Of a stretch of DNA of 64,000 nt, positions 5,073 to 58,824 are shown in pieces. A model generated the notes under the pieces. The model saw only the letters and a list, made by a program, of their open reading frames with translations, ran no database searches and was not told the origin of the DNA. The stretch is from NCBI GenBank assembly GCA_000146465.1, contig CP001946.1; one strand, 5' to 3'. The first letter of the stretch is position 1. Each line of letters opens with the position of its first letter. Both the position numbers and the translations under genes were made by a program.

Positions 5073-8000
5073 ATGATGAAGGACCTTTTTGTAGGTAGTG
5101 AACCAAGCGAGGTGAAGGCCAACCGGCTCAAGAAGTACATGGAAAGCGGAAGATTCCTTGAAACTCTTTTTTTCCCACATGAGTTTTTGGAGTCACTAGT
5201 TTTATTTGCTATTCAGATACTCAACAGTACGGAACCTGAGAAAAAATCGTCATTTGTGTCTGGAGGGAATGAATCTCGCTACATTGTCCTCAGGCTTTTG
5301 AACAAGTTTTCGCTGAAAAGGATTAGGAATACAGGATTAGTGCATGCACTCCATTGTGTGCTTAGAAATGACAATCTCCCAAACGTGATTTTGTCACTGA
5401 AGGCATTAGGTTCTCTGAGCAGATCGGGGGTCATTGCAGGAGATCTGGTGGAGGTGCATGTTGGAGTCCTTCTTGGGATGGTTCACAACCTCTTTACAAA
5501 CCTGGAAAGTGGAGAAGAAGGGCTCATTGAGATATCGCTATTTACTCTTACAGAGATGCTGACCCATGCCAGGGTTTTTTTCCGTGGGTTGGAGTACCAT
5601 GCTGTGAAGATTGATCAATTTTTGGCCTGTGTGTATGGAAACATCAGAAGAGCTTTTGAAAACCGGAGATTCATGGATGGGATGATGCATAAAAGGACGT
5701 CTTCAATAAGCATGTGTTCTGGAATCTGTAGTCTCCTCAAGCTGACATATGAGCAGCTTCCTATTGTGTCGAAGTCAGGGCCTTATCATGTGTTTGCTTG
5801 TGAGGCAGCATTTGTTGGGATGTATTACTGTCCCTCCGATCTCCTGGACCTTAGGAAGGAGATCTACATGCTGTTTAGCAAGATGTGTATAGGAGACAAA
5901 GAGATGGTTCTTCCTATGATGGACAAAGTGTATATGGTTCCATTTCTTTTTTCTCCAGATGCACAGCCAATGAGCGTCAAGGGGATTGGAATGCTCTCTG
6001 AAATGCTCGTGCATGTTAAGGAGAACCTTAGCAAGGCAGCATACATGGAGTTTGGGTCGAAGGTATTCAATGTGCTTTTTTCAACCTGTTCTTCAATAAG
6101 GAGGCTATGCAAGGAAGTTCATGAGGGAGGAGAAGAAAGACAGAAATATCGGAGGAATGCAAGCGATATAATTAGCCAGGATATTGAAAGTCTCATAGTA
6201 TGTCTAGGGGCGGTAGAGAACACATGCAAATGCTTTGGAGGCAGGACAGGAGATTCCGAAGAACTCAGCCACATTTATCTCAAGAGCTTTTACGATATAA
6301 GGAATGGATTTGAAGGAATCCAGGGATTAGTAAGACTGGGATGCGCAGGCAAGGAGGAGGAGTTGAAGAAGGTTGTAAAGAAATTTGTCTCTGGATTTCG
6401 AGAAGTGATTGGAAGAGCGGGAATCCTTGAAAAGTCTGGAAATGGGATTGTCTTTTCTGTACCCGAGATCAATATCCTGTATGAGATATTTGAGAGGTCT
6501 TTTGATGTATTTTTGCATGAGTGCCTGTGCCAAGAGCAGGACATTGAAGAGTTTTTCTCTGTGCTGTCTCTTGTTAGAGAGCACATTGGAAGCGATATAG
6601 TCAAATGCCTTTCAGAAAGAATTGTGGAGTACAGCAAGAAAAACGGGGAGTTCTTTGGGATATGGAGATTGATGAGCAGCTCTGTAATTTTGGGAAACAC
6701 ATTCTGTGGATATGTACTTCCACGAATGATCGAGGAGCTCGATAGAGAGGGATTTGAATTTGTCAAGAGGGCAATGAGATATATTGTTCCGTTTTTTGGA
6801 AACGATATAAAGAAGATAAAGCGAGTCAATACATTCTTCATGCACAGGATAATATCAACTCTGTTGGCAGCCAAGAGGATGGAAAACTTCGAAATTTTGC
6901 TGGAGATCTTCAACATGTTTGGATCGATGCCTGAGAAGAGCAGCTTTTTCCAGAAATACATCTTCGACAACTTCTCAAGGATAGTTTCTCATCTTATGAA
7001 TCTTTATGAAGTTGAGGGAAAGAGCATATTTATAGAAATGATATTTTCCTTGCCAATAAGTATCAACCTACTTGAATCAGATATCCAATTTCTCATGAGA
7101 CCTATTGAAGAGGCCTTAATGCTTCATGGGCCAGTAAGAACCAAGGCGCTGTCTATTCTTGTGTATGTTCTTGACTTTTCAACACCAGATAAGATTTCGG
7201 GTCTTGAGAAGACATGGCAAAACATTTTAAATAACGTAGCAGAGGGCTTGAAGGATAGCACAATGCTGTCGTTGTGTTCGAGAATACTGGGGAAGCTCAA
7301 GAGCTATCACAAGACGTTTGTAGTAGATGGGAAGATGTTTGAAGAGACAAACGAAGATTTAAAACTTATTAGGATAGTGGTGGATGGAAAGCATGCAGTT
7401 CCTGGGCATCTCTTGTTTTTCGATGCAGTGCAGAAGATAAGGGGGGCCTTTGAGCTGTCTGAAAAGAGCTTTGGGCCTTCTGGTGTTCTCACCAGGTTCA
7501 GGAGTCTAGGGCCCCGATGTGGAGATGGAGAAGCCAAAGGCGCAGCATTCAGACTAGTGGAGAAGGTGGTGTGCCATCTGATGGGATGGAACTCCTCTGG
7601 AAAGAACTTGATTCAGAATTATTACGAGTCTCTTCTGGAGGAGATGGAAGAGATAGGAAGCATTCCAGACACATTGGATTACATACACTCGGTTCATGGG
7701 GTTATCTCTTCGTTAGGCGGGAGGAAATGCTCGGACAGTCGGCATTTGGCCCAGTATGTCTACGATGCAATCCTCACGCTCTTCAGTTGCCATGGAACCC
7801 CTTTTGAAAAGAAAGCTCTGGAACTCCTTCATTCTATTTTTGGAGTCGTGATACTCCACAAGATATCTACTCTTCACAGGCCCAAGGGGAAGAGATACAC
7901 GATTCTTCTTGACACAGACACATTCCTTGATGCACTTGTAGAGTCGTTTTGCGATACCGAGAACTCGATGCCTTTCAAGGTACTCTCTGTAATGTTTGTC

Positions 8001-11000
8001 CAGATGTACGAGATGTTTGGAAGGAAATGCGAATACTTCTGTGTTGAGATGTATAGGGCTGTTTTCTCCAAGCTCAAGGCCATGTGCAAGTCTTCGAACA
8101 AGAGATGTAGAGACGCTGGAATCAATGGAATCATATGTCTTGCAGCAACAATGCCTATTCGAGAGCTTGTGATGCTCCGAGTCCCGGAAGATTCGTTTTC
8201 ATGTACATACCTTTATCTTCTTCCTCGGGGATCCGAAGATTTCTCTCTTCCCCTCCGGCTGGTTGTCTTTATCTTGAGATTCAGATACAAGGGAATTAGG
8301 AATTATTTGCTCTCCTCTGGAATGGAGAGGCACTTCATGATGTCGCATTTCAGACCGTTTGTTGCAGGCCTCTTTGATGGGAGAAAGGATGTTATGGACT
8401 TTTCCCAAGCTGTGTTGAGAGAAGTGTTCCAGAGCTATGGGCCTCGCCTACTGGAAAGACACAAGGACATGGTTTTTGGGTTTTTCAAGAAGGAATATGT
8501 AATAGGAAGCAGGGAAACAATGATAATGCACTTGAAAGTGTTTATTTTCTGCGTTCGAGAGGGCAAGTGTCCGTTTGACGATTGCGAGATGAAGTATCTT
8601 ATCGAGAAGTTTCTGGATGGGATTGCAAGCAACGAGGAGTGGAGAGGAACTGGAGGGGTTTATATGGGCTTTGACCACTGTGAAAGAGACGAAAGCACAA
8701 ACAACGAGGACTTTTGCAAGTGCAACAGATGCGGGAAGGGCGAAGAAGACACAGAGATTGTTCTAGGAGGGATCCATAAGAAGTTATCTTCGCTATCTAT
8801 GAGGGATTTGATGGAAATTGCGCTTAAAAACAAAATGGATGTGGTTTGCGGAGATTGCAAGAAAAAGATCTACAGACATAAGGAGGAGTGGTCTCCTAGA
8901 TTCAGTAACGAGGGGGAGGAGTTGATTTACTGGATAAGAGAGTTTTATTTGCTTGTCATTGAGTACAGGAAGTCCTTTGAGGAGATAAGAACAGCGGTTT
9001 TGTATTTATTGAGATATGTTTCGGACGATTCCTCGGATTACCTGCAGAAGGCACACAATATACGGCCGCAAGAGACAGAAGAGGTAATATCAGAGGAAGT
9101 GGAGAAGTGTCTGTCTGAGAAGGTCGACTACAAGATCCTCAACATGTTACTGTGTGCACATTCGATATCGGGGATTCGGGAGAATCCAAGGGTAGGGATG
9201 CTTGTTCTGAAGATTCTGAAAGAATTCAGGATTCCGAAAGAGTTTGCAATAATAGCACAGAATGACAGATACTCGATGCTGGCAAAGGCGTATGAAATAG
9301 GAATTAGACTGAAAAACCAGGAGGGGCTGTGCAACGAGATTCTGGAAACATACTTTGTACTTGACGGATATGCCAAGAGTTACACTTCCAGGATGTATCC
9401 TCGAATGATTAAGTATGTAGAGGATCTTGGATCACAGTTTGTAAGTTGTATGTTCCGAAGAATTCAAGACCCATCGGCTTACGAGTTGTGTTCACAGCTC
9501 TGCAAGGACTCGGCCAAGCTAAGAGAAATGGTGTTTGGAATGAAGGACAGACTTGCGGAGAGAATATCGCAAATATATTGCAGACTGGAAGGAAATGACT
9601 CCATAGAAAAGGATGTGTTTGTGTATTCGTATCGGTTTCTTGATCTTGCAGGGTATGAGATGAAGCCTGTCGACATTCAGGTTATTCTTGGGATTTATGC
9701 TGATGTGAAGACAAAGCCCAGACATGCTGTTGAAATGAGGGGGCTGATAAATAGATGCATCGACAGGTTTTCTCCAGAGAACCTCGAGACACTGTTCAAC
9801 ATAGACCCATGGTTTATGTCTGTGGATGGGATAGACCCGGGATATCTTACAGAGGGGCTTTCACCCTTGACTCTTAGGGGGATTATCCGGAGTATTGATA
9901 AGAGAAACAGACCCATGATTGAGAATTTGAGCCTATCTCTTGGAGAAAACAGACACATGCTGATTGAGATGTTTGTGGAGATGGGGATCAGGTCTGAGAA
10001 GCTTATTGGATACTGCAAGGAGAATCTACACATCACGAACCTTAGAGGGCTCCTGCTCTACTATCTATGCACATTCGAGCCCTTGCATGTCTATTTTGAA
10101 CTCCTGTTCAAGCTCCCTTACGAAGACAGGAAGTACACGCTATACTGTCTAGAAAGGATTGTCGATGTTTTTGATCCTCTTCTCTTTGAAGAGATAATTC
10201 TGATTGTGCTGCGCTCTGAAGTAAGGTTCAAGACAAGTCTCTGTATTCTGTTTCCTCTACTTCTATCGAGGCCCAGTCTTATCAGCAAGAAGATTGTGCT
10301 TGAGCTTACAGGGTCGATCTATAAGCTTCTTGATTCAGAGAACTTCCCCCAGCAGAGAATGGGGTTTAAGCTGTTTGAAGTTCTATACAACAGGTGTCTA
10401 TTAGGAGATGGATCGGGGAATATATGCAGAGAGTATGATTGGATCATAAGGAACATATACACTCTCATGTTTGTGAGGTTTATTCATATGGATCAGGACT
10501 TGGATGGAGATCTTCTTGAAAAGTACAATCTGGAGCTTGTTTTTGAGTTGGTGGAGTACTCTCCCAAGGAGCTAAATCTTAACAACATGTTCAGCTTTCT
10601 CGAAGCGGAGATTCTGAGCAAGAAGAATGAGGAGTACAAGATATGGTTTTTGAAAAGCATTGGAATGGCCATAGCGCCGTATTTCCGATCAAGGGCTTTG
10701 GGAATCAAGGTTATTGAGTATCTGGTGCGCATTGGGATGTGGAATTACAAGCTTCTTCGGGAGGAGCTGGGGGTTGTTGTGTACGACCCGAGCCTACTGT
10801 ACAATCTCCTTTGCATGCTTTGTAGCAAAGCTGGTGAAAGAGCTGGTTTGGGATGCAAGGCTCATAGGGATGATGTAGAAAACATGGAGATATGCTTGAT
10901 AGTGATAAGACATTTATTTGCAGAGTACAATAGAGAGAGAGGAGAAGCCAACCAGAAATATGTGGAGGAAGGACTTGAGAAGCTGTTCTATGTTTTATCT

Positions 11001-14000
11001 CTATACTCTGAAATGAAGAATATTGTGTGCTCGGTAACTAGGCTGTTCGTGGAAGCATTCAAGGACAATTCCTCTCGGATAGATCCATTAGTAAGCAAGA
11101 TAAGTTTCTTGATGTCTGATTTCAGAACGTCGCTTGCAGACAAGATTGAAATGGCTTGTCTCTTGAGCAATCGAGGGCATGACAATGAGTTTCTTAGTGA
11201 GATGCTGCTTCCGGCCTTCAACAATTATCTCTACTCTGGAGTTACCTTTCCGTCAGGCCTGCAGAAGTTCTTTATGAAAGGAGTCAGTTCGAAAAACAGC
11301 ATCTTGAGGAATGGATATCTAGATCTGATGAACCGCATTGTTCCTGTAAGCAAGTGGATGAGACTTAAGTATCTGCTGGAAATGGAATGGAAGCACAACG
11401 CAAAGATAGGATACACAATGACGGCGATGATGATCCTTTCTTGCCACACAGCAGAACTGGAGGCAGAAAAGTACTCGGAAATAAGACCGAGCAAGGATAT
11501 TGAATATCCTTGGTCACGGGAGGGGATGAGATGCAAGGGAAATGTGAGCAGATGCAGTGGACTTGTTGCGAATCTTCTTGAAGATGTTGGCCTATACAGG
11601 TCCAAGGCGTCGAAGCCAGACCTCCTGGAAATTCTGTACCACTTCGACGATTCCCTACTTCCGGTGCTATCTGGAGTCTTAAGAACTACTGTATGTGGAT
11701 TGGATTCCGAGAAATGTAAAAGCATATTCGAAGGCTTTGTGAAGTTCTGCTCGGAGGTTACAGGAGAAGGGAAACTTCTTGGAGCCCTTGTTAGGGGTCT
11801 TGGGCCTATATATAGACATGCAGATCTATATGAGCTTATTAAGGTATTCCGAGGAGGAGAGGGATGGTACACGCTACTGGAGTATGCAGATGATAGGCAG
11901 AAGACAGAGATATACAGGAGATTGATGAACTTGGATGAATACTTTGGAATGTCGCGGTCGGTGTGTATTTTTCCTGAGACGATGCAGGCATATTTCCTTC
12001 AGCAAGTGGGAAAGACCAAGGAAGCACAGGATCTCTATGAGGAGATCCAAGCCAGAGCAGGAAAGCACAAGATATCTTTTGACGAAAGGGAGTACAAGCT
12101 GTGGCAAGATGAGTGGGTGGCATGTGCAAAAGAACTGCAGCAATGGGATGTATGCTACGATGCAGGAGTGGAGATCGGGGATGGCTTGCTAAGTGGAGAA
12201 TCGTTGTGGCATCTTTCGAACTTCACAAGCCAGAAGGCAGTGGAGAAACTCAAAAGCGTGATTGGCAAGGGAGTAGGATTTGAAAGAGAATTCCTCGATG
12301 TATTTGCAGATATATTTATGAAGTATTCGGCAGAGAGGATCAAGGGAATCCTAACAAAGAACATTGCAGAGCTCAGGAGTTACCCCGTAGGAAGTGGAGC
12401 AAACCTAAGAAATCTTATGTATCTGCAGATCATCATAGAAATGGTTGAGGCAGAGCCTATTTTTAACGACAAGATAGACTCGATAGAAGCATTGACATCG
12501 ATATCCTTCCGATGGAAGGACAAGGAGCCGTCCATCTACAGCTCTTTTGCAGAATGGAGCCTCTTCAAGACATGGAGAAAACATGTATATTCGAGATTGG
12601 GAATGGGAGAGAAGATGTGTGGCAGAGAGATGGGATACAAGCAGCCAGAAAGAGGTTACACAGAGGAGATGGGAAATTCCTTGGGTAGAAAGCCTATAGC
12701 ATCGCATTTGTTTTCTCCAAAAGAGATGAATGAGAACTATGCAAAGATAAAAAAGGAACTGGTGGCCCGAGGAACAAACGAATTGGCAAAGACTCTGAAC
12801 ATGTTTTCCAAGGCAGCCATCGACCATGGATACTATGATGTGGCTCTATTCCATCTTAAAGAAGTCTTTGACCTAAGCAGTGTAAAGGTAGGGGATGCCT
12901 TCCAGAAGGTTGTTTATGAGCTACTTTGCTTTCTCGGCAAGAAAGAGTACAAGATAGGAGCCGAGCAGTGCATGTCGGCAAACATACAACATTTCAGTGA
13001 TACACAGAATTCGGTACTATTCAACATCAAGGGGCTGTTCAATGAGAAGCTTGGAAAGGCTTCGGATGCCGAAAAATTCTATTTGCAGTCTGCACAGATA
13101 TGCAACACAGTTGGAGAAAACTGGCTCACATGGGCGAGTTTCTTGTTTGGTAGGATCGATGGAGATGCTCCAGAAGTAAAGGAAGACGTCTTTGTTGCTC
13201 TTCTACAAGCCATTACCTACTGCAACGGCCCAAATGCAAGGAAAGGAATTCTTAAGATGATTCTACTTATGGGAGAGCATTCCTCGCTCTGTGATGTGGA
13301 GTTGTTCCACAAGGTTCTTCAAGAGATTGACATCTCTCGATTTATATACTTTATTCCGCAACTGATTGGGCTACTGGAAAAGGAAGACTCAAGGTTGGTG
13401 CAAGCCATACTTGGCAAGATCTCGGAAGAGTATCCGCAAGCAGTGATAGGGCCCCTTAAGGCAGCTAAGGAAAGAATAAGAAGAAGCTTGGGGCTTGGAA
13501 AGGAAGATATAGAATGCAAGGTGGGGGAACACAAGGTAGAAGGTAGAAGTAGCGAAGATTCAAAGAGTCTTGGGACTGGACTGGTGACTGGAGAGAAGAA
13601 CATGTTTTTGGAGAATGTTATGTGTATATACAACCGGATAAAAAACGCCCAACCAGGGAAAGAGTTCTGGAAGATCCTTCACTATCTTCACAATTCGCTG
13701 AACTCCTTCGCCTTTAAGGAGGAGGAGCTTGTGTATCTGGAGATCGAGAAGATCTTCAACAGTGCTGTGTCGCATGTTGTGCATGGGGCTGTTCCATCGG
13801 GCCTTGGCCATGCTAAGATTCTGAACGAGCTTATTTTCCAGGTTTCTGTTTCTTCCCTAAGCCGGAAACTCAAGGAAGAGCTTACATCTTCCATTCTCAA
13901 GATGAGGTGCATCTGCCCTCTTGAGAACATCGATGAAATGGTACGGTTCAAAAGTAAGGTGCAGAAGATTGTAGAAGAATCCTTCCATAGGATGGACAAG

Positions 14001-15380
14001 TCCGAGGAGTCTGAGGTGAATCTACTGCTATACAGATCCGACTACAAGCATCGAGTATTTGGACAATACTCGGAAATAAGAAGAAGTTACAAGAGCCTTG
14101 CGAGCATAGAGATGTTTGAGCCTCGGCAGCCCTACATGTACAGAAAAAGAATGGGATGCAATAGAATTCACCTGAGAGGAAGCGATGGGAAGATGTACAG
14201 ATACGAGATGAAAGAGTTAAGGAAGATGAGGTTCTCTGAGTTTGTCCTTCCACAGATATCTTTGATGATTAACGAGGCGATGGGCGAGGACACCAACTTG
14301 CGAAGGAGAGGTGCGGAGTTGAGGTTGTTTGTTCCCTTTATTGCTAGTGAAGTTCTTGCATTGAAATGGATCAAGGAGCCTGTCTATTACATGGATAGTA
14401 TATTGGAAGAGGGGCTAAGTAGATACAAGATGAACATTGATCAATGTGTGCTTCTTTATCTTGATCACTTTGCAACTATCTACGATGGGTTAGACTCAAG
14501 TCCAGGGCATTTCGAGAACAGATATCAGCTGGAGAAGGGACTCACTGCAAGCCTAAAGCCGAGGATTCAAGGAGACGAATGCCCCAATATAAGGAAGAAA
14601 AAAGGCTTTCTTGAAAGCAAGGAGTCGCAGGAGAACCTCATAAACAATGTTAGAATGGTTATTGAGAGGCAGAGGGAGAAGTACACAAGTGGTTTGAGAC
14701 AGAACGAAGTCGAGTGTCTTGGATGCAATGAAAGAGGAGAGGGGATTTCTCCATGTACCTATAGATATGAAACCTCAAAGCGGCAAAGATACATGGCTTA
14801 CGAGAAGGTATACAACACCTTCAAGAAAACTAGCTTTGTGGATGATTACTTCAAGCTTATTTATGGAAACCTGGGAGGATACTTCCGATTTAAAAACAAA
14901 CTTCTTTCCAGTTATTCAGCCAACAGTGTCTTTTTGTACACGTTCTCTGTTGTAGACAGGAGGCCAAGAAACCTTGCCATCACCAAGACTACCGGCTGTT
15001 TTATGAATAGAGACGTCTGTTGCGAGGAAGCTGAGATATCGAGCAAAGGAAAGGGAATGGGGGCCATAGGACCAGGATACCAGAAGCTCTTTGGGAAAGA
15101 AGGGATAGAAGGCACAATGGTGTCTATTATGTATCATTATGCCGGGATGGTAAACAAGGGAGATTGGAGTAAGGATCTGGTGAAAGCTCTACTTGAAGGC
15201 AGGTTTATAGACATGACGGGAAAAGGACTCAAGGGAGCTCACAAGGAAATGCTAAGTAGAGTCTCTGAGATGATTGGAAAAGGCGAGGATGGGACCCATA
15301 ATGTGATTCCGATGGTTAGTGAGTGGATGGACATGTTCAAGCTAGCACAGATTGATCCAAGACATATGTGCTGGATGTGA
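5073..15380 (+). CDS. TRA1: Tra1/TRRAP-like PIKK-family scaffold protein (pseudokinase), 3435 aa
   Basis: A single 10.3-kb ORF with an ATG preceded by 'aaaaaccc'. It has long helical-repeat (HEAT/TPR-like) regions. The C-terminal PI3K-like domain has a degenerate catalytic loop (VDRRPRN in place of DRHxxN; no DFG). The FATC-like end is ...AQIDPRHMCWM. The size and pseudokinase character fit Tra1/TRRAP rather than TOR, ATM or ATR. Confidence 0.75.
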   Translation: MMKDLFVGSEPSEVKANRLKKYMESGRFLETLFFPHEFLESLVLFAIQILNSTEPEKKSSFVSGGNESRYIVLRLLNKFSLKRIRNTGLVHALHCVLRNDNLPNVILSLKALGSLSRSGVIAGDLVEVHVGVLLGMVHNLFTNLESGEEGLIEISLFTLTEMLTHARVFFRGLEYHAVKIDQFLACVYGNIRRAFENRRFMDGMMHKRTSSISMCSGICSLLKLTYEQLPIVSKSGPYHVFACEAAFVGMYYCPSDLLDLRKEIYMLFSKMCIGDKEMVLPMMDKVYMVPFLFSPDAQPMSVKGIGMLSEMLVHVKENLSKAAYMEFGSKVFNVLFSTCSSIRRLCKEVHEGGEERQKYRRNASDIISQDIESLIVCLGAVENTCKCFGGRTGDSEELSHIYLKSFYDIRNGFEGIQGLVRLGCAGKEEELKKVVKKFVSGFREVIGRAGILEKSGNGIVFSVPEINILYEIFERSFDVFLHECLCQEQDIEEFFSVLSLVREHIGSDIVKCLSERIVEYSKKNGEFFGIWRLMSSSVILGNTFCGYVLPRMIEELDREGFEFVKRAMRYIVPFFGNDIKKIKRVNTFFMHRIISTLLAAKRMENFEILLEIFNMFGSMPEKSSFFQKYIFDNFSRIVSHLMNLYEVEGKSIFIEMIFSLPISINLLESDIQFLMRPIEEALMLHGPVRTKALSILVYVLDFSTPDKISGLEKTWQNILNNVAEGLKDSTMLSLCSRILGKLKSYHKTFVVDGKMFEETNEDLKLIRIVVDGKHAVPGHLLFFDAVQKIRGAFELSEKSFGPSGVLTRFRSLGPRCGDGEAKGAAFRLVEKVVCHLMGWNSSGKNLIQNYYESLLEEMEEIGSIPDTLDYIHSVHGVISSLGGRKCSDSRHLAQYVYDAILTLFSCHGTPFEKKALELLHSIFGVVILHKISTLHRPKGKRYTILLDTDTFLDALVESFCDTENSMPFKVLSVMFVQMYEMFGRKCEYFCVEMYRAVFSKLKAMCKSSNKRCRDAGINGIICLAATMPIRELVMLRVPEDSFSCTYLYLLPRGSEDFSLPLRLVVFILRFRYKGIRNYLLSSGMERHFMMSHFRPFVAGLFDGRKDVMDFSQAVLREVFQSYGPRLLERHKDMVFGFFKKEYVIGSRETMIMHLKVFIFCVREGKCPFDDCEMKYLIEKFLDGIASNEEWRGTGGVYMGFDHCERDESTNNEDFCKCNRCGKGEEDTEIVLGGIHKKLSSLSMRDLMEIALKNKMDVVCGDCKKKIYRHKEEWSPRFSNEGEELIYWIREFYLLVIEYRKSFEEIRTAVLYLLRYVSDDSSDYLQKAHNIRPQETEEVISEEVEKCLSEKVDYKILNMLLCAHSISGIRENPRVGMLVLKILKEFRIPKEFAIIAQNDRYSMLAKAYEIGIRLKNQEGLCNEILETYFVLDGYAKSYTSRMYPRMIKYVEDLGSQFVSCMFRRIQDPSAYELCSQLCKDSAKLREMVFGMKDRLAERISQIYCRLEGNDSIEKDVFVYSYRFLDLAGYEMKPVDIQVILGIYADVKTKPRHAVEMRGLINRCIDRFSPENLETLFNIDPWFMSVDGIDPGYLTEGLSPLTLRGIIRSIDKRNRPMIENLSLSLGENRHMLIEMFVEMGIRSEKLIGYCKENLHITNLRGLLLYYLCTFEPLHVYFELLFKLPYEDRKYTLYCLERIVDVFDPLLFEEIILIVLRSEVRFKTSLCILFPLLLSRPSLISKKIVLELTGSIYKLLDSENFPQQRMGFKLFEVLYNRCLLGDGSGNICREYDWIIRNIYTLMFVRFIHMDQDLDGDLLEKYNLELVFELVEYSPKELNLNNMFSFLEAEILSKKNEEYKIWFLKSIGMAIAPYFRSRALGIKVIEYLVRIGMWNYKLLREELGVVVYDPSLLYNLLCMLCSKAGERAGLGCKAHRDDVENMEICLIVIRHLFAEYNRERGEANQKYVEEGLEKLFYVLSLYSEMKNIVCSVTRLFVEAFKDNSSRIDPLVSKISFLMSDFRTSLADKIEMACLLSNRGHDNEFLSEMLLPAFNNYLYSGVTFPSGLQKFFMKGVSSKNSILRNGYLDLMNRIVPVSKWMRLKYLLEMEWKHNAKIGYTMTAMMILSCHTAELEAEKYSEIRPSKDIEYPWSREGMRCKGNVSRCSGLVANLLEDVGLYRSKASKPDLLEILYHFDDSLLPVLSGVLRTTVCGLDSEKCKSIFEGFVKFCSEVTGEGKLLGALVRGLGPIYRHADLYELIKVFRGGEGWYTLLEYADDRQKTEIYRRLMNLDEYFGMSRSVCIFPETMQAYFLQQVGKTKEAQDLYEEIQARAGKHKISFDEREYKLWQDEWVACAKELQQWDVCYDAGVEIGDGLLSGESLWHLSNFTSQKAVEKLKSVIGKGVGFEREFLDVFADIFMKYSAERIKGILTKNIAELRSYPVGSGANLRNLMYLQIIIEMVEAEPIFNDKIDSIEALTSISFRWKDKEPSIYSSFAEWSLFKTWRKHVYSRLGMGEKMCGREMGYKQPERGYTEEMGNSLGRKPIASHLFSPKEMNENYAKIKKELVARGTNELAKTLNMFSKAAIDHGYYDVALFHLKEVFDLSSVKVGDAFQKVVYELLCFLGKKEYKIGAEQCMSANIQHFSDTQNSVLFNIKGLFNEKLGKASDAEKFYLQSAQICNTVGENWLTWASFLFGRIDGDAPEVKEDVFVALLQAITYCNGPNARKGILKMILLMGEHSSLCDVELFHKVLQEIDISRFIYFIPQLIGLLEKEDSRLVQAILGKISEEYPQAVIGPLKAAKERIRRSLGLGKEDIECKVGEHKVEGRSSEDSKSLGTGLVTGEKNMFLENVMCIYNRIKNAQPGKEFWKILHYLHNSLNSFAFKEEELVYLEIEKIFNSAVSHVVHGAVPSGLGHAKILNELIFQVSVSSLSRKLKEELTSSILKMRCICPLENIDEMVRFKSKVQKIVEESFHRMDKSEESEVNLLLYRSDYKHRVFGQYSEIRRSYKSLASIEMFEPRQPYMYRKRMGCNRIHLRGSDGKMYRYEMKELRKMRFSEFVLPQISLMINEAMGEDTNLRRRGAELRLFVPFIASEVLALKWIKEPVYYMDSILEEGLSRYKMNIDQCVLLYLDHFATIYDGLDSSPGHFENRYQLEKGLTASLKPRIQGDECPNIRKKKGFLESKESQENLINNVRMVIERQREKYTSGLRQNEVECLGCNERGEGISPCTYRYETSKRQRYMAYEKVYNTFKKTSFVDDYFKLIYGNLGGYFRFKNKLLSSYSANSVFLYTFSVVDRRPRNLAITKTTGCFMNRDVCCEEAEISSKGKGMGAIGPGYQKLFGKEGIEGTMVSIMYHYAGMVNKGDWSKDLVKALLEGRFIDMTGKGLKGAHKEMLSRVSEMIGKGEDGTHNVIPMVSEWMDMFKLAQIDPRHMCWM

Positions 15381-21040: not shown

Positions 21041-21871
21041 TCACTTGTAATTACTGTAGCTACAGTGGATCTTGTAGTGTTGTAGCATATTGTCTTTTCT
21101 AGAGAACCTCTTGTTGCAGTCCTTGTTCAAGCACTTGAACGGCCTCAATCTGGTATGAACTATGTAGTGCCTTTTAATTCTACTCAAGGTAGGCAACTCC
21201 ATAGTGCATCCCTCGTACGGGCAGACGTAGGACTTTACCCCATTCTTGGATTTATAAGGGAACATCGATGTTTCAAAGTCTGCAAAGCTTTCTATTCCTG
21301 CTTTCCTTGTATCGGAATCCTCCTGAGATACCGACAGCGACTCAGAATCCCTGGACTTCCTGCCCGCCTCAGGCTCCACTTTATTTACCTCTTCCAGCAC
21401 TTCTCTCTTTCTTCTTTTTATCTCCCTTTTCTTCTCGTTGGCCTCTCTGTTCATCTCCAGGTGTCTGTTGATCCTTCCCCTGACAATCCTCCTCATCTCT
21501 TCCTCGGCCTCAAGAATAAGAAACCTTAAGGACATTAGCTTCTCGTCAAACTCCTCCGAATCTTCACTATGAACTGACCATTGGCTCTCAACCGACATAG
21601 GCGTGTTCAATCCGTCGCTGTTGTCGTTTCCATGGTATTGGGTGCGGCACTTCTTTTTGTCTCTAGGGTCTATGTCTTTATTATAAACACTTCCCCATGG
21701 GTAGCCTAGAGAAGAAAAGTCTCTGTTCCGCTTTCTCTTTTCTCCTCGATATCTGTTCCCTCCTCGTCCCAGCTCATAGAACCCTAGATAATTGCTATCG
21801 TTTTCATCTCTGCTTGATTCCTCGCTGAAGTCGAGCCTTCTTCGATTCATCTCCACTCTGTTCTTCAACAT
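21041..21871 (-). CDS. C2H2 zinc-finger protein
   Basis: C-terminal YVCPYEGC...[35 protein letters not shown] gives two C2H2 fingers. The N-terminus is acidic, charged and low-complexity. Confidence 0.7.
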
Positions 21872-22039: not shown

Positions 22040-23107
22040 ATGATATTTTCAATAGGAGACCAGAAAAAGAAATACGAGACAAGGGAGGATGTCTCAGGGG
22101 TGGTACAAGAAATAAAAAAGTCTCTGGACGAGCTTGTGGAGGTTGATCTGTCTGGAAACCATTTTTCCGAAGAGGCAATGGAAGAAATATGCCATGTCCT
22201 CAGGGATGCCAAGAACCTCCACGTGATCAATCTTTCCAGTGCGTTTCTGGGCCTTGACAAGGAGAAGCTGTACTCTAATCTCGCCATGCTTTCAAAAATG
22301 CTTGCCAATCACAAGATACAGAAGATTGACCTGAGCGACAATGCCATAAGCTCGGAGTTTCCCCCTGAGCTCGGGGAGTTTATTTCCTCGTCCACTGATT
22401 TGGTCCACTTGAAAATGAACAACTGTGGGCTTGGGAAGATCGGAGGGGGTAGGCTGGGAGAGTATCTTCTCAAGATAGCAGACAAGACCAAGCTGGAGGT
22501 GGTGGATATTGCCCAGAACAGGTTTTTCTCTTTTCCAAAGGAGCTTTCCGACGCACTGCTAGGATTCAAGAATATCAAGGAGCTTCGAATCCAGTACAAT
22601 ACAATCGAGGAAGAGACAATGCTTGAGTTCCTAAGGGCATTCCAGAGCCATTCTCTTGAGGTGCTTGACATAAGAGATAACTTCCTGTCTCTAGAAGGGT
22701 CCAGATACCTGGGGAGTCTTTATTGTGAATGGAATCTGAGGGAACTCAGGGTTGGAGACTGTATGATGGGAAACGAAGGAGTGAAGGATTTCCTCGAAAG
22801 AGCAAACAAGAAATTTGTGCCAATGGCCCTTCCTGGGGATTACGACGGCAAGAGGGAAAGAATTGCCCTCGATATATCGTACAATGAGTTTGAGCAAGAT
22901 GCTGTTGAAATTCTCAAGGACTTCTGCAGTCGGAATATCATCAAGGAGCTCGTTGTGTTTGGAAACTACTACGACGACATAAGCGATATCATCGATATTG
23001 TTGAAAAGCAAGGAGGAGTTGTTATAACTGAGGAGCATACAGATCTGTCCAGCGACTCTGGGATGGAGATAGATGAGTCTGTGATTGAAGGGATTGCAGA
23101 GATGTAG
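22040..23107 (+). CDS. leucine-rich-repeat protein, Ran GTPase-activating protein (RanGAP1/Rna1)-like
   Basis: Repeated LxLxxNxL LRRs (DLSGNHFSEEAM, INLSSAFLG, DLSDNAISSEF, LKMNNCGLGKIGG) plus an acidic C-terminal tail, as in RanGAP. Confidence 0.6.
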   Translation: MIFSIGDQKKKYETREDVSGVVQEIKKSLDELVEVDLSGNHFSEEAMEEICHVLRDAKNLHVINLSSAFLGLDKEKLYSNLAMLSKMLANHKIQKIDLSDNAISSEFPPELGEFISSSTDLVHLKMNNCGLGKIGGGRLGEYLLKIADKTKLEVVDIAQNRFFSFPKELSDALLGFKNIKELRIQYNTIEEETMLEFLRAFQSHSLEVLDIRDNFLSLEGSRYLGSLYCEWNLRELRVGDCMMGNEGVKDFLERANKKFVPMALPGDYDGKRERIALDISYNEFEQDAVEILKDFCSRNIIKELVVFGNYYDDISDIIDIVEKQGGVVITEEHTDLSSDSGMEIDESVIEGIAEM

Positions 23108-23283: not shown

Positions 23284-25362
23284 ATGATCAAAAAAGACGC
23301 AGAAGAGATTCTTATGGATCCTCTTGCAGGAAACATCATTGATGCAGAGGAAATAGTTGCAAGGAGCGAGATAAGGGATGAGCAAGCAAGAGTTTTGGAA
23401 GAGGAAAAGGAAGATGGAAGAAAAGGATCCAGATATAAAAGGCTGCAGACTGTCTTGGGAGAAGGGACATTCAAGAAGGTTTACAAAGCAGTTGACCAGG
23501 AGGAGGGGAAGGAGGTTGCATGGAATGAGATCAAAATCAACGAGAAGGGGCAGGACAGCAAAGAGAGGGCATTATTTGCCAATGAAATAGCACTCCTGAA
23601 GTCTATTTCACATCCTAACATCCTTCGGATCCTCGACTATTGGTTTACGGCTGACAGCTTTATATTTATCACGGAGCTGATGAGTGGAGGAACACTCCGG
23701 GAGTACATAGCAGAGATAGGGGATCTGAACGTCAAGCTTATAAAGAAGTGGGGAAGGAACATTCTTGAGGGACTTGTGTATCTTCACAGCCAGGATCCTC
23801 CGATTATCCACCGGGATATTAAGTGCGAAAACATCTTTGTGAATGCAGCTCTTGGAGAGGTGAAGATAGGAGATCTTGGGGTTGCCAAGGAAAGAAGGAT
23901 GAAAAGATATACTGTTGTTGGAACTCCGCAGTTTATGGCAAGAGAAATGTTTGAGGGAGAAGGATATGGGGAGAAGATAGATGTGTATGCATTTGGGATG
24001 TGTTTGATTGAGATGGCAACGGGGGCGTATCCATATAGGGAATGCACTACGGCTGCAGAGGTCTACAAGGCAATTATACAAGGGGTTCCTCCTGTTGTCT
24101 TGAACTCTATCAAGGACGTATGTCTTAGGAATCTGATTATGAACTGCTTAGTCTCTGAAAAAGACAGGCTAAGGAGTGTGGATTGCTTGAAGCACCATTT
24201 CTTTGACAGTAGTAGCACATGCAATGGAGAATGCATTCCTGCTGAGTGCATGTCTGGAGTTCCTCTGACAGCACCTGCAAATGACATGGAAATAAGTTTT
24301 CTGTCATTCAAGGATAATGTAATTACATTTCAATTGTTTTTCATGAGCATGGCAAGGTTCATCAAGTTTGACTACGACCTCCAGTCAGACACTGTTGAGG
24401 ATGTTGCAAATGAGATGCTGGAGGAGGAGGTAGTATCTGAGGATCAGAGAGACACGCTTCTTGGGCTTCTATCACGGGGAATTGAAAAGGCAAAGCAGCG
24501 GATTGAAGAGATGGAGTGTAAGAATACAGAAGAAGAGATGAAGAAGTTGAGCATAGATACAGAGAAGGAAAAGAGCAAGGCAGAAGGGCCGAAGAATGAT
24601 TTCAACAAAATAACGGACAGAAATCTGAGTATAGAGGAGGTTGAATCGATGCTGGAGATAGATGTGAAGTTTTGCCAGGATGAGACCAGCCGTCTGTATA
24701 CCTGGTCCAGAACGGTAAGAAATGGGGATTCGAAAGTGGGGGTGGAAATTGGATCTTCTCCAGACCATTCGCCAGAACTATTACCCAGCGAAGGAATAAT
24801 GGAGGAACAGAAAAAGACTGGGGGAGGAAAGTGCTTCGACGAACTGGAGTGTCCCAATAGAAAATACGATGAAGATGTCTCTATTGAAGAGTTTGCAGCA
24901 GATGTTTCGGTTGCGACAAAGAGATCATCTGAAACAGTTACCAATTGGATAAAGGCATTCAAGTCGAATGATATCGACAGTGTGTTTGAACTAAAGATTC
25001 TTGTGGACGAGGACTGGGACAAGCTTGGGCTCACTGTTTTTTCGAGCCGAGCCATGAAGAACATGCTCTATGGAGTTGGCAAGATTCCTCTGAAGGAGAA
25101 GCAGCTTCCTACCAACACCTCGATCAAGGACTATGGAGGAGGGGTTGAGATCAAAGAGTTTCTCCATGAGATCGGGGCTATAGTTGGTAAGGACAAGTGT
25201 GTGTCTATCTGGGAAAGCAAACTTCTTGCACAGGATATTAGGACTGTCGAGGAGCTCCGATCGCTGCACCAGGACGACTGGGATAGACTGGGTCTATCTG
25301 TGTACTCGTGCAGGGTGATCAAGAATGTTATTTACAAAAAAGGAAGAGTAGTGCTTTGCTGA
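23284..25362 (+). CDS. WNK-like Ser/Thr protein kinase with two tandem C-terminal SAM-like domains
   Basis: Kinase: GEGTFKKVYKAV...KEVAWNEIK (Lys in the Gly loop, none in beta3, the WNK hallmark), IIHRDIKCENIFV, VKIGDLGVA, GTPQFMAREM. C-terminus: two about 50% identical repeats (LKILVDEDWDKLGLTVFSSRAMKNMLYG / LRSLHQDDWDRLGLSVYSCRVIKNVIYK) fitting the SAM consensus. Confidence 0.8.
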   Translation: MIKKDAEEILMDPLAGNIIDAEEIVARSEIRDEQARVLEEEKEDGRKGSRYKRLQTVLGEGTFKKVYKAVDQEEGKEVAWNEIKINEKGQDSKERALFANEIALLKSISHPNILRILDYWFTADSFIFITELMSGGTLREYIAEIGDLNVKLIKKWGRNILEGLVYLHSQDPPIIHRDIKCENIFVNAALGEVKIGDLGVAKERRMKRYTVVGTPQFMAREMFEGEGYGEKIDVYAFGMCLIEMATGAYPYRECTTAAEVYKAIIQGVPPVVLNSIKDVCLRNLIMNCLVSEKDRLRSVDCLKHHFFDSSSTCNGECIPAECMSGVPLTAPANDMEISFLSFKDNVITFQLFFMSMARFIKFDYDLQSDTVEDVANEMLEEEVVSEDQRDTLLGLLSRGIEKAKQRIEEMECKNTEEEMKKLSIDTEKEKSKAEGPKNDFNKITDRNLSIEEVESMLEIDVKFCQDETSRLYTWSRTVRNGDSKVGVEIGSSPDHSPELLPSEGIMEEQKKTGGGKCFDELECPNRKYDEDVSIEEFAADVSVATKRSSETVTNWIKAFKSNDIDSVFELKILVDEDWDKLGLTVFSSRAMKNMLYGVGKIPLKEKQLPTNTSIKDYGGGVEIKEFLHEIGAIVGKDKCVSIWESKLLAQDIRTVEELRSLHQDDWDRLGLSVYSCRVIKNVIYKKGRVVLC

Positions 25363-25786: not shown

Positions 25787-27310
25787 ATGAAGACAGAAAT
25801 TAAAGACTTGTTTGAGAAGGACAAGAACAGAGCCAAGAAGCTGGCCAGAAAAGTTGATGTGGGAAAGGAGTTTATATACTATGACTTCTCGAAGACTCAT
25901 ATCACGGAGGAAATCATTGACAGATACTTGGAAAAGATGGATGGATTTGGAGAAAAAATAGAGGGAATGTTTAATGGAGAAAAGATAAACTATACCGAGG
26001 ACCGGAAGGTTCTGCATGTGGCACTGAGGGATAAGGAAGTGCTGAGGGGGATTTCTGGAGAAGATGTGAAGCTGGACTCGGATCGTAAGATGGTTTATGA
26101 CGAGTTGATGAAGATCAAAGGATTTGTAAAGGATTTCGATGAAGGAAAGATATGTGGAGTAACTGGGAAGAGGTTAGAAATGATTGTCAACATAGGAATT
26201 GGAGGAAGTGATCTTGGGCCCAGGATGGTGTGCGATGCACTTGAGTACTATGGAAGGAAGGGGATAAAGACTTACTTTATCTCAAACATCGATGCAACGA
26301 ACACAATCAAGGTTTTTGAGAAGATTGACCCTGAAAGAGCTTTATTTATTGTGGTAAGTAAAACATTCACGACGCTTGAGACCATCAAGAATGCCGAGCT
26401 TTCAATGAGGTTTCTGGAGAAGAGGCTTGGTAAAGACAGAGCTGAGATTGCAAGTAAACATTTTGTTGCAGTGAGCTCGAATGTAGACGAAGTCAGGAAA
26501 CACAACATTTCCCGTGTGTTTTCGATGTGGGACTTTGTTGGAGGAAGATTCTCCCTGTGGTCTGCAGTTGGGCTGTCAATAGTTCTCTACATTGGATTTG
26601 ATAACTTCATATGTCTACTTAGAGGAGCTTCTGTTGTTGACGAATATTTCCGAAAGAGCCGGGGAAGGTCAAATGCTGAGATGATGCATGCGATTGTGGA
26701 GCTGTTCTATTCGGAGAGGGGATACAACAACAAGTGCCTTGTCTCCTATGACGAATACATGAGGAAATTCTATCTGTATCTCCAGCAAGCGGAGATGGAA
26801 AGTAATGGGAAACCATCGCAAAAAACAGACACAGGCTATATTATATGGGGAGGAAAAGGGACGGATGTTCAGCATTCGTTCTTCCAGTTGCTGCACCAAG
26901 GTACCAGGAAGATCTTGACGGAGCTTCTGATGCCTCTCAAACCTTTACATTCGGAGGAGGAGTACCATAGGATGGTTGTTGCAAATTGCTTGGCACAAAG
27001 CAGAGGCCTGATGATTGGAAAGGAAGATCCAAATCCAGAGAAGTCATTTGAAGGAGACAAACCAACCGTTACAGTCTGCTACTCTAAGCTCACGCCGGAG
27101 ACACTTGGCGCCATGATAGCGCATTATGAGCATAAGATATTCATTCTGGGGCTATACTGGGGCATAAACTCCTTTGATCAGCCTGGAGTTACTCTGGGAA
27201 AGAAGATAGCCATTGAAGTGCTTGAGTCCTTTGATGAGAAGAAAGAGTCGGAGAAGTTTGATGAGTCGACAAACGAGATGTTATGCCTGATGAGGAGCTG
27301 CAAGAGGTGA
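25787..27310 (+). CDS. PGI1: glucose-6-phosphate isomerase
   Basis: [14 protein letters not shown], the [13 protein letters not shown] signature, [12 protein letters not shown], and the expected length. Confidence 0.95.
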
Positions 27311-27412
27311 TCTAAGATGGGCTCACGAGGGTACTACCTTAATAAAATCCTCTCTTTGGTTTGTGTTCTTTGAGATTTGGTGAACGTTTTTTGGAGGAGA
27401 GGAAAACCCTTA

Positions 27413-28108
27413 ATGTTTTCATTCAAGGAAAGGATGAAGACATTTGCTTCATGGCCTGAGAACTACGGTGTTGCAACGCCGGAGGGTCTTTCCATTGCAG
27501 GATTTATCTGCCTATCTACGGAAGAGAACAATCTGACGGTGGAGTGTGTGTATTGCAATAAGACACTGGAATGCTGGGAAAGGACAGACATGCCGGCAAA
27601 GGAGCACTACCTCCACATGAACAGCTGTCCACTTTTCAATGTGAACAGATTGGAGAGCAGGGTAAAGATGTTCAATGGATGGAGTCTCAAGGAGGCGAAG
27701 GCACTTGCAAGAATGGGGTTTGTTAAGTACAACCTTGGAGAGTCGGACTTTATCTTTTGCTATAAATGCGGATCGATCAACAGAAGCCATTTGTGTGAAA
27801 GAAAGAGAGGGCATCCATACAGCTTGGAGAAGCGTGGGAGTGTATTTTTTTACGACTTAATCGAAGGCATTTACAACAAAGAGCTGGTGAAGCTTACAGA
27901 GTACAATGTATATATTCCACAGCACACCAAAGAGTTTCTGAAAGAAGTTACCGGTGGTTGTTTGGGGTCGGTTTTTCGAAGTGTCGAGGATGTGATAGAA
28001 GAATACATGGGAAACAAGCTGTTTGAAATAGACAAGGCTATGAGCCATGATATCGAGAGAGCTCTTGATGAGGTGGTGGCGGGAATTGGAAAAAAAAGCC
28101 TGGGATGA
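27413..28108 (+). CDS. BIR-domain protein (survivin/Bir1-like)
   Basis: The ORF-track start (27377) is TTG. The first ATG at 27413 is preceded by 'aaaaccctta'. BIR: RMKTFASWPE...AGFICLS...VECVYCNKTLECWERTDMPAKEHYLHMNSCPLF. A second, degenerate BIR-like Cys/His segment follows. Confidence 0.8.
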   Translation: MFSFKERMKTFASWPENYGVATPEGLSIAGFICLSTEENNLTVECVYCNKTLECWERTDMPAKEHYLHMNSCPLFNVNRLESRVKMFNGWSLKEAKALARMGFVKYNLGESDFIFCYKCGSINRSHLCERKRGHPYSLEKRGSVFFYDLIEGIYNKELVKLTEYNVYIPQHTKEFLKEVTGGCLGSVFRSVEDVIEEYMGNKLFEIDKAMSHDIERALDEVVAGIGKKSLG

Positions 28109-53876: not shown

Positions 53877-54629
53877 TTATTTAATAAAACTTTTATCCTT
53901 TTGACTTTCTTCCCGGATGCTATCAATGCTTTTCCCATACCACTTGTCCATTGTACAGAATACCCTTTGCTGGACAGATGTTATAACGCTTCTCATGGCC
54001 TTTTCTATCTCTGCAGAAACCCACCCCATCATGTAATTGTTGATCTCCACTGTTAAATGCTTATAGGACACCATCATCGGCATTCCTCTATTCTTGTATG
54101 TTTCTATCCAATTTTCATCCAGCCTTCCACGGCCACTCTCCTCATGGTAATAAACAGAAGGATCAAAGATGGGATTGATTGGAGGGGAGTTTAGATCCAA
54201 TCTGATGCTTTCGACCCCACTGATGCGTGCAGGATCGTACTCAAACGGATTCTCAAGAATCTCTGCTCCATCCTTGTTAACTGTGTTGAAAACCATGTTG
54301 AATGTGTCATTGGAGAAGTATCTATTTCTGTAGAATGTATGGCATTTAGTGTAGGCATTGTATGAGATTTCCTCGACTATGCATGCATCCTCTGGAATAA
54401 GGCTGTGAAGCATACGCGGGAACCGGGATTTTAAGTACATGACTTTATGTGTTTTGCTGACCTTTCCAAGTGTCTCGTGCACAACACTTTCTGCTTTCAG
54501 GATCTCTACCTTCAAGCCCCCGGCATTTTCTGATTCGGTCATTGCTGTGACTGTATAGAAGTGGCCCACTGCATACTCGTCGGTGGTCATCGGAAGAACT
54601 GTTACATATATCTTCTCCACCTTGGCCAT
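53877..54629 (-). CDS. phosphatidylinositol transfer protein (PITP)
   Basis: The start was re-set to the ATG giving MAKVEKIYVTVLPMTTDEYAVGHFYTVTAMTESENAGG (PITP: [26 protein letters not shown]...). C-terminus MMVSYKHLTVEINNYMMGW...QQRVFCTMDKWYG (MCAYKLVTVKFKWWGLQ...HRQLFCWLDKW). Confidence 0.8.
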   Translation of the reverse strand: MAKVEKIYVTVLPMTTDEYAVGHFYTVTAMTESENAGGLKVEILKAESVVHETLGKVSKTHKVMYLKSRFPRMLHSLIPEDACIVEEISYNAYTKCHTFYRNRYFSNDTFNMVFNTVNKDGAEILENPFEYDPARISGVESIRLDLNSPPINPIFDPSVYYHEESGRGRLDENWIETYKNRGMPMMVSYKHLTVEINNYMMGWVSAEIEKAMRSVITSVQQRVFCTMDKWYGKSIDSIREESQKDKSFIK

Positions 54630-54744
54630 TGTGTTCCGGAGTCTCCCTTTATTTATCATAGAAGCATCCAGCAGCATTATGAACTTGACAATTAAAATAA
54701 GCAAAAGGAGGTAGTCAGGATGACGTGAAATAGAAAGTTTTAAT

Positions 54745-58752: not shown

Positions 58753-58824
58753 TTTCAGGGCAAAAATTTCTCCTGTGTTTTGCCGCCTTGGAAAAGACAA
58801 AAAGACATCTAAAACCGTATTTAA

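Follow-up and report, generated by a model that had tools for sequence, protein, structure and literature searches.

We analysed a 64,000-nucleotide window (the whole stretch of DNA taken from contig CP001946.1 of GenBank assembly GCA_000146465.1) around a protein kinase gene that an original prediction, made from the sequence letters, had described as a WNK-type kinase fused to two tandem SAM-like domains. The gene occupies positions 23284..25362 on the plus strand, exactly as claimed and as given in the list of open reading frames (ORFs), and is complete and intron-less (692 amino acids plus stop). Its product matches the annotated “Ser/Thr protein kinase” P0001 of Encephalitozoon intestinalis ATCC 50506 with 100% identity and full coverage, so the window is a piece of a microsporidian chromosome; its tightly packed intron-less genes and G+C content of ∼44% fit this origin. 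The yeast kinome, against which the original prediction had set the protein, is therefore not the relevant reference. From its N terminus, the protein comprises a helix (residues ∼21–44 in the full-length AlphaFold2 [AF2] model), a WNK kinase domain, a CCT/PF2-like domain, a disordered linker of ∼100 residues, and two SAM-like domains joined by a 14-residue linker. We are highly confident of this architecture and of the WNK identity.

The gene encodes the sole WNK-family Ser/Thr kinase of E. intestinalis. Its kinase domain (residues ∼50–308; 23431..24207, plus strand) is recognized by the Pfam Pkinase model at residues 55–307 (E = 6e-51). When the protein was searched against sequences in the Protein Data Bank (PDB), the best 15 matches were all WNK1 or WNK3 (E from 2e-70 to 2e-67), whereas the next kinase families (EGFR, MAP3K2, and PAK) began at ∼1e-33 compared with ∼1e-70 for the WNKs. 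In the full-length AF2 model, the kinase domain has a predicted local distance difference test (pLDDT) score mostly >85, and the 30 best Foldseek matches of that model in the PDB are all WNK1 or WNK3; the top match (5o2c), a WNK3 kinase plus CCT1 didomain, extends over 365 columns. We rejected the alternative of a STE-group kinase with a coincidental shift of the catalytic lysine, because PAK and MAP3K chains scored only ∼1e-31 to 1e-33 against 1e-70 for the WNKs. The assignment rests on these score margins and on a published tree (PMC4280135).

The residues that set WNKs apart are present as well. All motifs quoted in the original prediction were found, namely GEGTFKK at residues 59–65, VAWNEIK at 78–84, HRDIKCENIF at 176–185, and both repeat cores. 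Lys64 (codon 23473..23475) is the catalytic lysine shifted into the glycine loop (strand beta2), a WNK hallmark, and aligns with the glycine-loop lysine of the WNK1 stretch GRGSFKTVYKG. Asn81 (codon 23524..23526) stands where the canonical beta3 (VAIK) lysine would be and aligns with the cysteine that replaces it in WNK1 (VAWCEL). Both residues are invariant in 62/62 members of an alignment of microsporidian and early-fungal relatives (39 of the 62 are microsporidian type), as are H-R-D (176–178), D197/G199, and Tyr209-Thr210. Thr210 (activation loop; codon 23911..23913) aligns with the serine just before VIGTPEFMAPE in WNK1 and WNK3, the main autophosphorylation site (S382 in WNK1). The conserved threonine is thus a putative activation-loop phospho-acceptor, as the alignment suggests. 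The Lys64/Asn81 pattern, together with the PDB and Foldseek results, upholds the proposed WNK-type kinase. As a separate observation, E. intestinalis has “ARE” (residue 220) in place of the kinase “APE” motif, a difference from human WNK1 and WNK3; across the 62 aligned sequences, 38 have Arg, 23 have Pro, and 1 has Lys at the second position of the motif.

Neither the gene nor its kinase class is new. The E. cuniculi orthologue CAD26582.1 (694 aa; P0004), 81% identical to the E. intestinalis protein, was listed in a 2007 kinome as the sole “TKL” kinase, the only kinase family there that is absent from both yeasts (PMC2078597). A 2014 survey of four species reclassified it as a WNK and notes that it lacks the subdomain II lysine and clusters with animal WNKs (PMC4280135). 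The earlier TKL label was evidently a misclassification, and public databases already give several orthologues the name “WNK lysine deficient protein kinase” or “pkpA.” Compared with human WNK1 and WNK3 (5o2c and 6cn9), the E. intestinalis kinase domain is ∼42% identical and shares the glycine-loop catalytic lysine, the lack of a beta3 lysine, the DLG motif, and the activation-loop phospho-acceptor position at Thr210. The human proteins likewise carry a CCT/PF2-like domain immediately after the kinase. In contrast, the E. intestinalis WNK is just 692 aa long, with two SAM-like domains in place of the long C-terminal region, which in animal WNKs contains coiled coils.

Directly after the kinase lies a CCT/PF2-like domain, as in the WNK family. 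Pfam OSR1_C matches there at 24.6 bits (curated cut-off 22.4), and a weaker CCTL2_WNK match is also present. Residues ∼335–412 (24286..24519, plus strand) adopt a beta-beta-beta-alpha-alpha fold in the AF2 model (pLDDT ∼90); together with the Foldseek matches, this marks the domain as the counterpart of WNK CCTL1. In WNKs, the CCTL1 domain, C-terminal to the kinase, is autoinhibitory and binds RFx[V/I] motifs. We found no RFx[VI] motif in the E. intestinalis protein or in nearly all of the sampled microsporidian orthologues, the one exception being RFTV in P0056; this led us to abandon the notion that the CCT-like domain has a ligand motif in its own polypeptide. The WNK family is also marked by chloride and osmotic control of autophosphorylation and by phosphorylation of SPAK/OSR1. 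A SPAK/OSR1-type kinase appears in neither published microsporidian kinome (PMC4280135, PMC2078597), and the two sources list one STE20 kinase (2014 survey, PMC4280135) and none (2007 kinome, PMC2078597). On both counts, the microsporidian proteins differ from human WNK1 and WNK3. Because SPAK/OSR1 is unlisted and RFx[VI] is lacking in the sampled microsporidian WNKs, the downstream wiring must differ from that of the animal pathway. The CCT-like domain is nonetheless well conserved although its usual motif and partner kinases are not in evidence. Most likely, the putative ancestral WNK role, that of a kinase responsive to ion and osmotic stress, has been kept.

The CCT-like domain is followed by a charged, poorly conserved linker (residues 418–520; 24535..24843, plus strand), which is predicted to be disordered (pLDDT <50) and leaves an alignment consensus of nearly all “x.” Beyond it lie SAM-like domain 1 (residues 526–600; 24859..25083), a conserved interdomain linker of ∼14 residues (601–614; 25084..25125; consensus P-L-K-E-K-Q-L-P-x-N), and SAM-like domain 2 (residues 615–688; 25126..25347), all on the plus strand and with domain boundaries taken from profile envelopes. 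Aligning residues 525–607 with 614–691 gave a local BLOSUM62 score of 130, far beyond chance as judged from 500 shuffles (24.3 ± 4.2, maximum 42). The two repeats that the original prediction had seen are therefore real, but they fill the last ∼167 residues rather than the last 150. Its figure of about 50% identity holds for the quoted 22-residue core (12/22, or 55%) but falls to 34% over the whole unit.

To follow the repeat across relatives, we iterated a hidden Markov model (HMM) of the unit over the 120 best homologues. Every one of the microsporidian-type proteins (58/58) carries two units at the constant spacing of ∼14 residues, and P, K, and L in the intervening linker are near-invariant in the alignment. 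The named two-copy taxa are Encephalitozoon, Ordospora, Nosema, Pancytospora, Enteropsectra, Glugoides, Enterospora, Enterocytozoon, Ecytonucleospora, Conglomerata, Gurleya, Vavraia, Dictyocoela, and several Nematocida. We considered whether faulty annotation or a frameshift had created the repeat and rejected this, because the two-unit tail recurs with identical spacing in these 58 independent sequences. The remaining WNKs (62/62), from chytrids, Mucoromycota, Glomeromycota, Zoopagomycota, and an aphelid, have exactly one unit near the C terminus. Early-diverging fungal WNKs (Phycomyces “pkpA,” Spizellomyces punctatus WNK, Batrachochytrium, Rhizophagus, and Amoeboaphelidium) are 36–39% identical to the E. 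intestinalis protein over ∼80% of its length and share both the CCT-like domain and a C-terminal SAM-like unit, the latter with 38.5% mean identity to domain 1 (r1). They differ in having one unit, whereas Microsporidia have two with a fixed linker.

A neighbour-joining tree of 178 units, a distance tree without support values, resolved three pure clades: first units, second units (r2), and fungal single units, with the first-unit clade sister to the fungal one. SAM-like domain 1 has its orthologue in the lone C-terminal unit of the fungal WNKs, and domain 2 is a Microsporidia-specific duplicate. Most simply, the tree reflects a single tandem duplication that preceded the radiation of canonical Microsporidia. 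Calling the protein lineage specific, as the original prediction did, thus suits the SAM-like tail, of which early-diverging fungi have one unit and Microsporidia a tandem, but not the WNK itself, which is pan-eukaryotic.

The SAM-like unit is a small, isolated family, as a profile search of 1.84 billion representative sequences returned just 178 proteins that contain it. Some of these are non-kinase proteins outside the WNKs. P0144, from a metagenome (624 aa), carries eight tandem copies. The chytrid LIM-domain proteins P0235 (Synchytrium endobioticum, 941 aa) and P0253 (Polychytrium aggregatum, 894 aa) have the unit at the C terminus, and the PUB-domain protein P0256 (786 aa) has three stretches of it. 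Three weak stretches were also seen in P0261 and P0263, annotated from the genome of the bee Hylaeus volcanicus (589 and 614 aa, both without a Pfam domain); these two could truly belong to the insect, stem from a contaminating microsporidian or fungal symbiont, or reflect horizontal transfer.

Whether the units are SAM domains was judged at two levels. At the level of sequence, a Pfam check of the C terminus for SAM_1 or SAM_2, as the original prediction had suggested, gave no match at E ≤ 10. Neither Pfam nor NCBIfam returned anything for the tail, whether the whole protein or its C-terminal 193 residues were scanned (the NCBIfam matches being generic bacterial kinase models), and precomputed Pfam annotations of 120 homologues showed no domain over the SAM-like tail. 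Curated sequence models do not recognize the units as SAM. Among 25 diverse family members, five touched SAM_EPH (best E 0.047) and one SAM_TNK (E 0.017), all below threshold. A 25-unit HMM searched against PDB sequences found a Myb-like domain and the ANKS3 SAM at a nonsignificant E of ∼0.4 (0.38 for ANKS3), the latter in register (L-t-e-s-D-L-k-e-I-G-I...R against L-h-e-e-D-W-d-k-L-g-L...R). Using hhalign, we aligned the unit profile with a small canonical SAM profile at a probability of 18% (P 0.0013) over 35 in-register columns; that SAM profile had been validated on PDB sequences, where SAM chains of Eph, TEL, SHIP2, Ste11, and p73 came up at 1e-17 to 1e-60. In the eight-unit protein P0144, SAM_EPH reached 56.9 bits (E 1.7e-15) over the whole protein, with every single stretch failing the threshold.

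At the level of fold, the models were more telling. AF2 modeling of residues 516–692 with 33 aligned orthologues gave a pLDDT of 90.9, a predicted template modeling score (pTM) of 0.85, and five helices per unit, and the full-length run reproduced both five-helix units at pLDDT 95–98. In these two independent predictions, each unit is a compact five-helix bundle of SAM size (∼65–75 residues), with a pLDDT of ∼95 for domain 1 and ∼96 for domain 2. Foldseek comparison of the tandem model with the PDB returned almost only SAM domains, led by the tandem SAMs of Odin/ANKS1A and Caskin1, with E values of ∼1e-2 and single-domain TM scores of 0.6–0.68 at 2–3 Å. The predicted two-domain arrangement also superposes on solved SAM-SAM pairs. 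A confident AF2 model whose matches are nearly all SAM domains or SAM tandems answers the call in the original prediction for a structure prediction of the C terminus; of its claim of two SAM-like domains, the fold is borne out by AF2 and Foldseek, but SAM membership at the sequence level is not. Judged from the models, each unit clearly has a SAM-like fold.

Such a fold might also have arisen by convergence, in which case the units would be an independent five-helix bundle of a small fungal family, not homologous to SAM, that settled on a SAM-like topology. The missing Pfam match, the hhalign probability, and Foldseek E values of just ∼1e-2 would agree with this, as would the small size of the family in the profile search and the absence of any annotated canonical SAM protein among the handful of its members examined. 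However, every weak sequence match is to a SAM family and keeps the right register, the L-x-x-[ED]-D-[LW]-x-x-L-G-[IL]...R motif included, and SAM structures are matched by the single-domain and the two-domain geometry alike. We therefore consider convergence unlikely. Each unit is most probably a very divergent SAM, with the models as the main guide, although strict family membership by sequence is undemonstrated. Conservation within the unit is highest at an acidic E/D-D-W-D motif ahead of helix 4 (D577/W578) and at the invariant Arg with which helix 5 starts (Arg589). In the ANKS3 and hhalign alignments, both fall on regions of canonical SAMs that, from EphA2-SHIP2 and TEL, are presumably the mid-loop and end-helix interaction surfaces.

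The tandem SAMs of AIDA-1/ANKS1B (2kiv), Odin/ANKS1A (5zry), and Caskin1 (3sen/3sei) differ from the WNK tail in several respects. Sequence identity is 11–16%, and the Pfam SAM models miss the E. intestinalis units; moreover, those tandems sit on ankyrin-repeat scaffolds, whereas the WNK units sit on a kinase and were duplicated independently within Microsporidia. Other kinases that carry a SAM, namely ASK1-3 (C-terminal SAM), Ste11/Byr2, ZAK/MAP3K20, Eph receptors, and TNK1/ACK1, belong to the STE, TKL, and TK groups rather than to WNK and have a single SAM instead of a tandem; nothing suggests a shared origin of the fusion.

For the function of the tail, we propose, by analogy with such systems, that the tandem mediates WNK self-association or recruitment of a partner. 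The two units would pack head to tail within one molecule, the mid-loop surface of one against the end-helix surface of the other, which is the arrangement in the tandems of AIDA-1, Odin, and Caskin. Such a contact is suggested by the high pTM obtained for the tandem and by the way in which the model superposes on SAM-SAM pairs. The outer surfaces left free could then mediate self-association of the WNK or binding of a partner, and the kinase domains so concentrated would promote trans-autophosphorylation at Thr210. The tail would thereby do the job of the C-terminal SAMs of ASK1-3 and of the C-terminal coiled coil or condensate-forming region of animal WNKs. The ASK1-3 SAMs drive signalosome oligomerization (bioRxiv 10.1101/693663). 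Taken singly, this oligomerization or scaffolding mechanism is a working proposal to which we give slightly less than even credence; the whole explanation, comprising the architecture, the identity, and the mechanism, we hold with middling confidence as the best available.

The head-to-tail contact also admits a different outcome, which is the main rival. If the two units satisfied each other's surfaces completely, the tandem would be a closed, nonpolymerizing adaptor of the AIDA-1 type that docks a heterologous partner or substrate and so replaces the SPAK/OSR1 relay. We regard this as possible but rather doubtful. Two further rivals, like convergence, are less likely. One draws on the superfold that SAM-like and helix-hairpin-helix domains share, some of which bind nucleic acid (compare the Smaug/Vts1 SAM, the C-terminal domain of the RNA polymerase alpha subunit, and the RAD51 N-terminal domain); the units would then tether the kinase to RNA or DNA, which we think very improbable.

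The other would have the tandem act as an intramolecular autoinhibitor that folds back on the kinase or the CCT-like domain until an osmotic or ionic signal frees it. WNKs are known to be autoinhibited by a C-terminal element (CCTL1), and the long flexible linker at residues 418–520 would permit such a fold-back. Against it, the full-length AF2 model has a pTM of 0.54, with the domains set ∼100 residues apart at pLDDT <50 and no sign of fixed docking (weak evidence), and the SAM-like unit also occurs on non-kinase proteins. We judge the fold-back to be improbable, and self-association or partner recruitment remains our preferred account of the tail.

A bolder version of that account would make the SAM-like tail a polymerizing module that clusters the fungal and microsporidian WNK under crowding or osmotic change. 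In a kinome of ∼30 kinases that lacks MAPK cascades, the WNK would then be a central osmotic or ionic sensor that controls spore germination and polar-tube firing. This is a long shot, but if the polymerizing reading were true, the tail would play, as a structured SAM-based module, the part that the condensate-forming C terminus has in animal WNKs.

WNK kinases are sensors of chloride, osmotic state, and crowding in animals and plants. To our knowledge, they are absent from model yeasts, which has left the biology of fungal WNKs almost unexplored. In Microsporidia, a single WNK is retained within one of the smallest eukaryotic kinomes, apparently without the canonical SPAK/OSR1 relay, so this kinase is probably important and differently wired. 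We found no description of a WNK-SAM architecture in fungi or Microsporidia in the searchable literature, whose journal coverage is partial, so that absence is no proof. What was already known, then, is the gene and its WNK identity; what is apparently undescribed is the SAM-like tail, single in early-diverging fungal WNKs and duplicated in Microsporidia. The finding is incremental, as it joins two familiar kinds of element, a WNK kinase and a SAM-type module, and fusions of kinase and SAM are common in other families. Its units nevertheless define a small subfamily of SAM-like domains that escapes current Pfam models, and the tail offers a testable handle on how the microsporidian WNK is assembled or targeted. 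The result is of interest for WNK evolution and microsporidian signaling, and the kinase could conceivably become a drug target in a human pathogen.

The WNK gene stands among ordinary housekeeping genes, as judged by Pfam. Just upstream lie a 276-aa protein with C-terminal C2H2 zinc fingers (21041–21871, minus strand) and a 355-aa leucine-rich-repeat protein (22040–23107, plus strand), which is RanGAP-like by appearance and matches only LRR models in Pfam; nothing suggests a functional link of either to the kinase. On the other side, phosphoglucose isomerase (25787–27310; PGI, E 2e-140) lies immediately upstream of a protein with a BIR domain of the inhibitor-of-apoptosis/survivin type (27377–28108, plus strand), whose listed start is TTG and whose real start is probably a downstream ATG.

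Farther away, a 3435-aa ORF (5073–15380, plus strand) is Tra1/TRRAP-like by its FAT and Tra1-ring Pfam matches; at E ≤ 1e-4, Pfam finds no PI3K/PI4K catalytic domain in it, which agrees with Tra1 being a pseudokinase. A 1351-aa protein of the DEAD/DEAH-box helicase family (54745–58800, minus strand; DEAD, ResIII, and Helicase_C matches) is listed with a TTG start that overlaps the ORF at 53877–54827, and translation of it probably begins farther downstream. Both GC skew and AT skew follow the coding strand, being positive over plus-strand genes (for example, 6–16 kb and 22–28 kb) and negative over minus-strand genes (for example, 54–60 kb), which indicates that the sense strand is purine-rich throughout the 64-kb segment.

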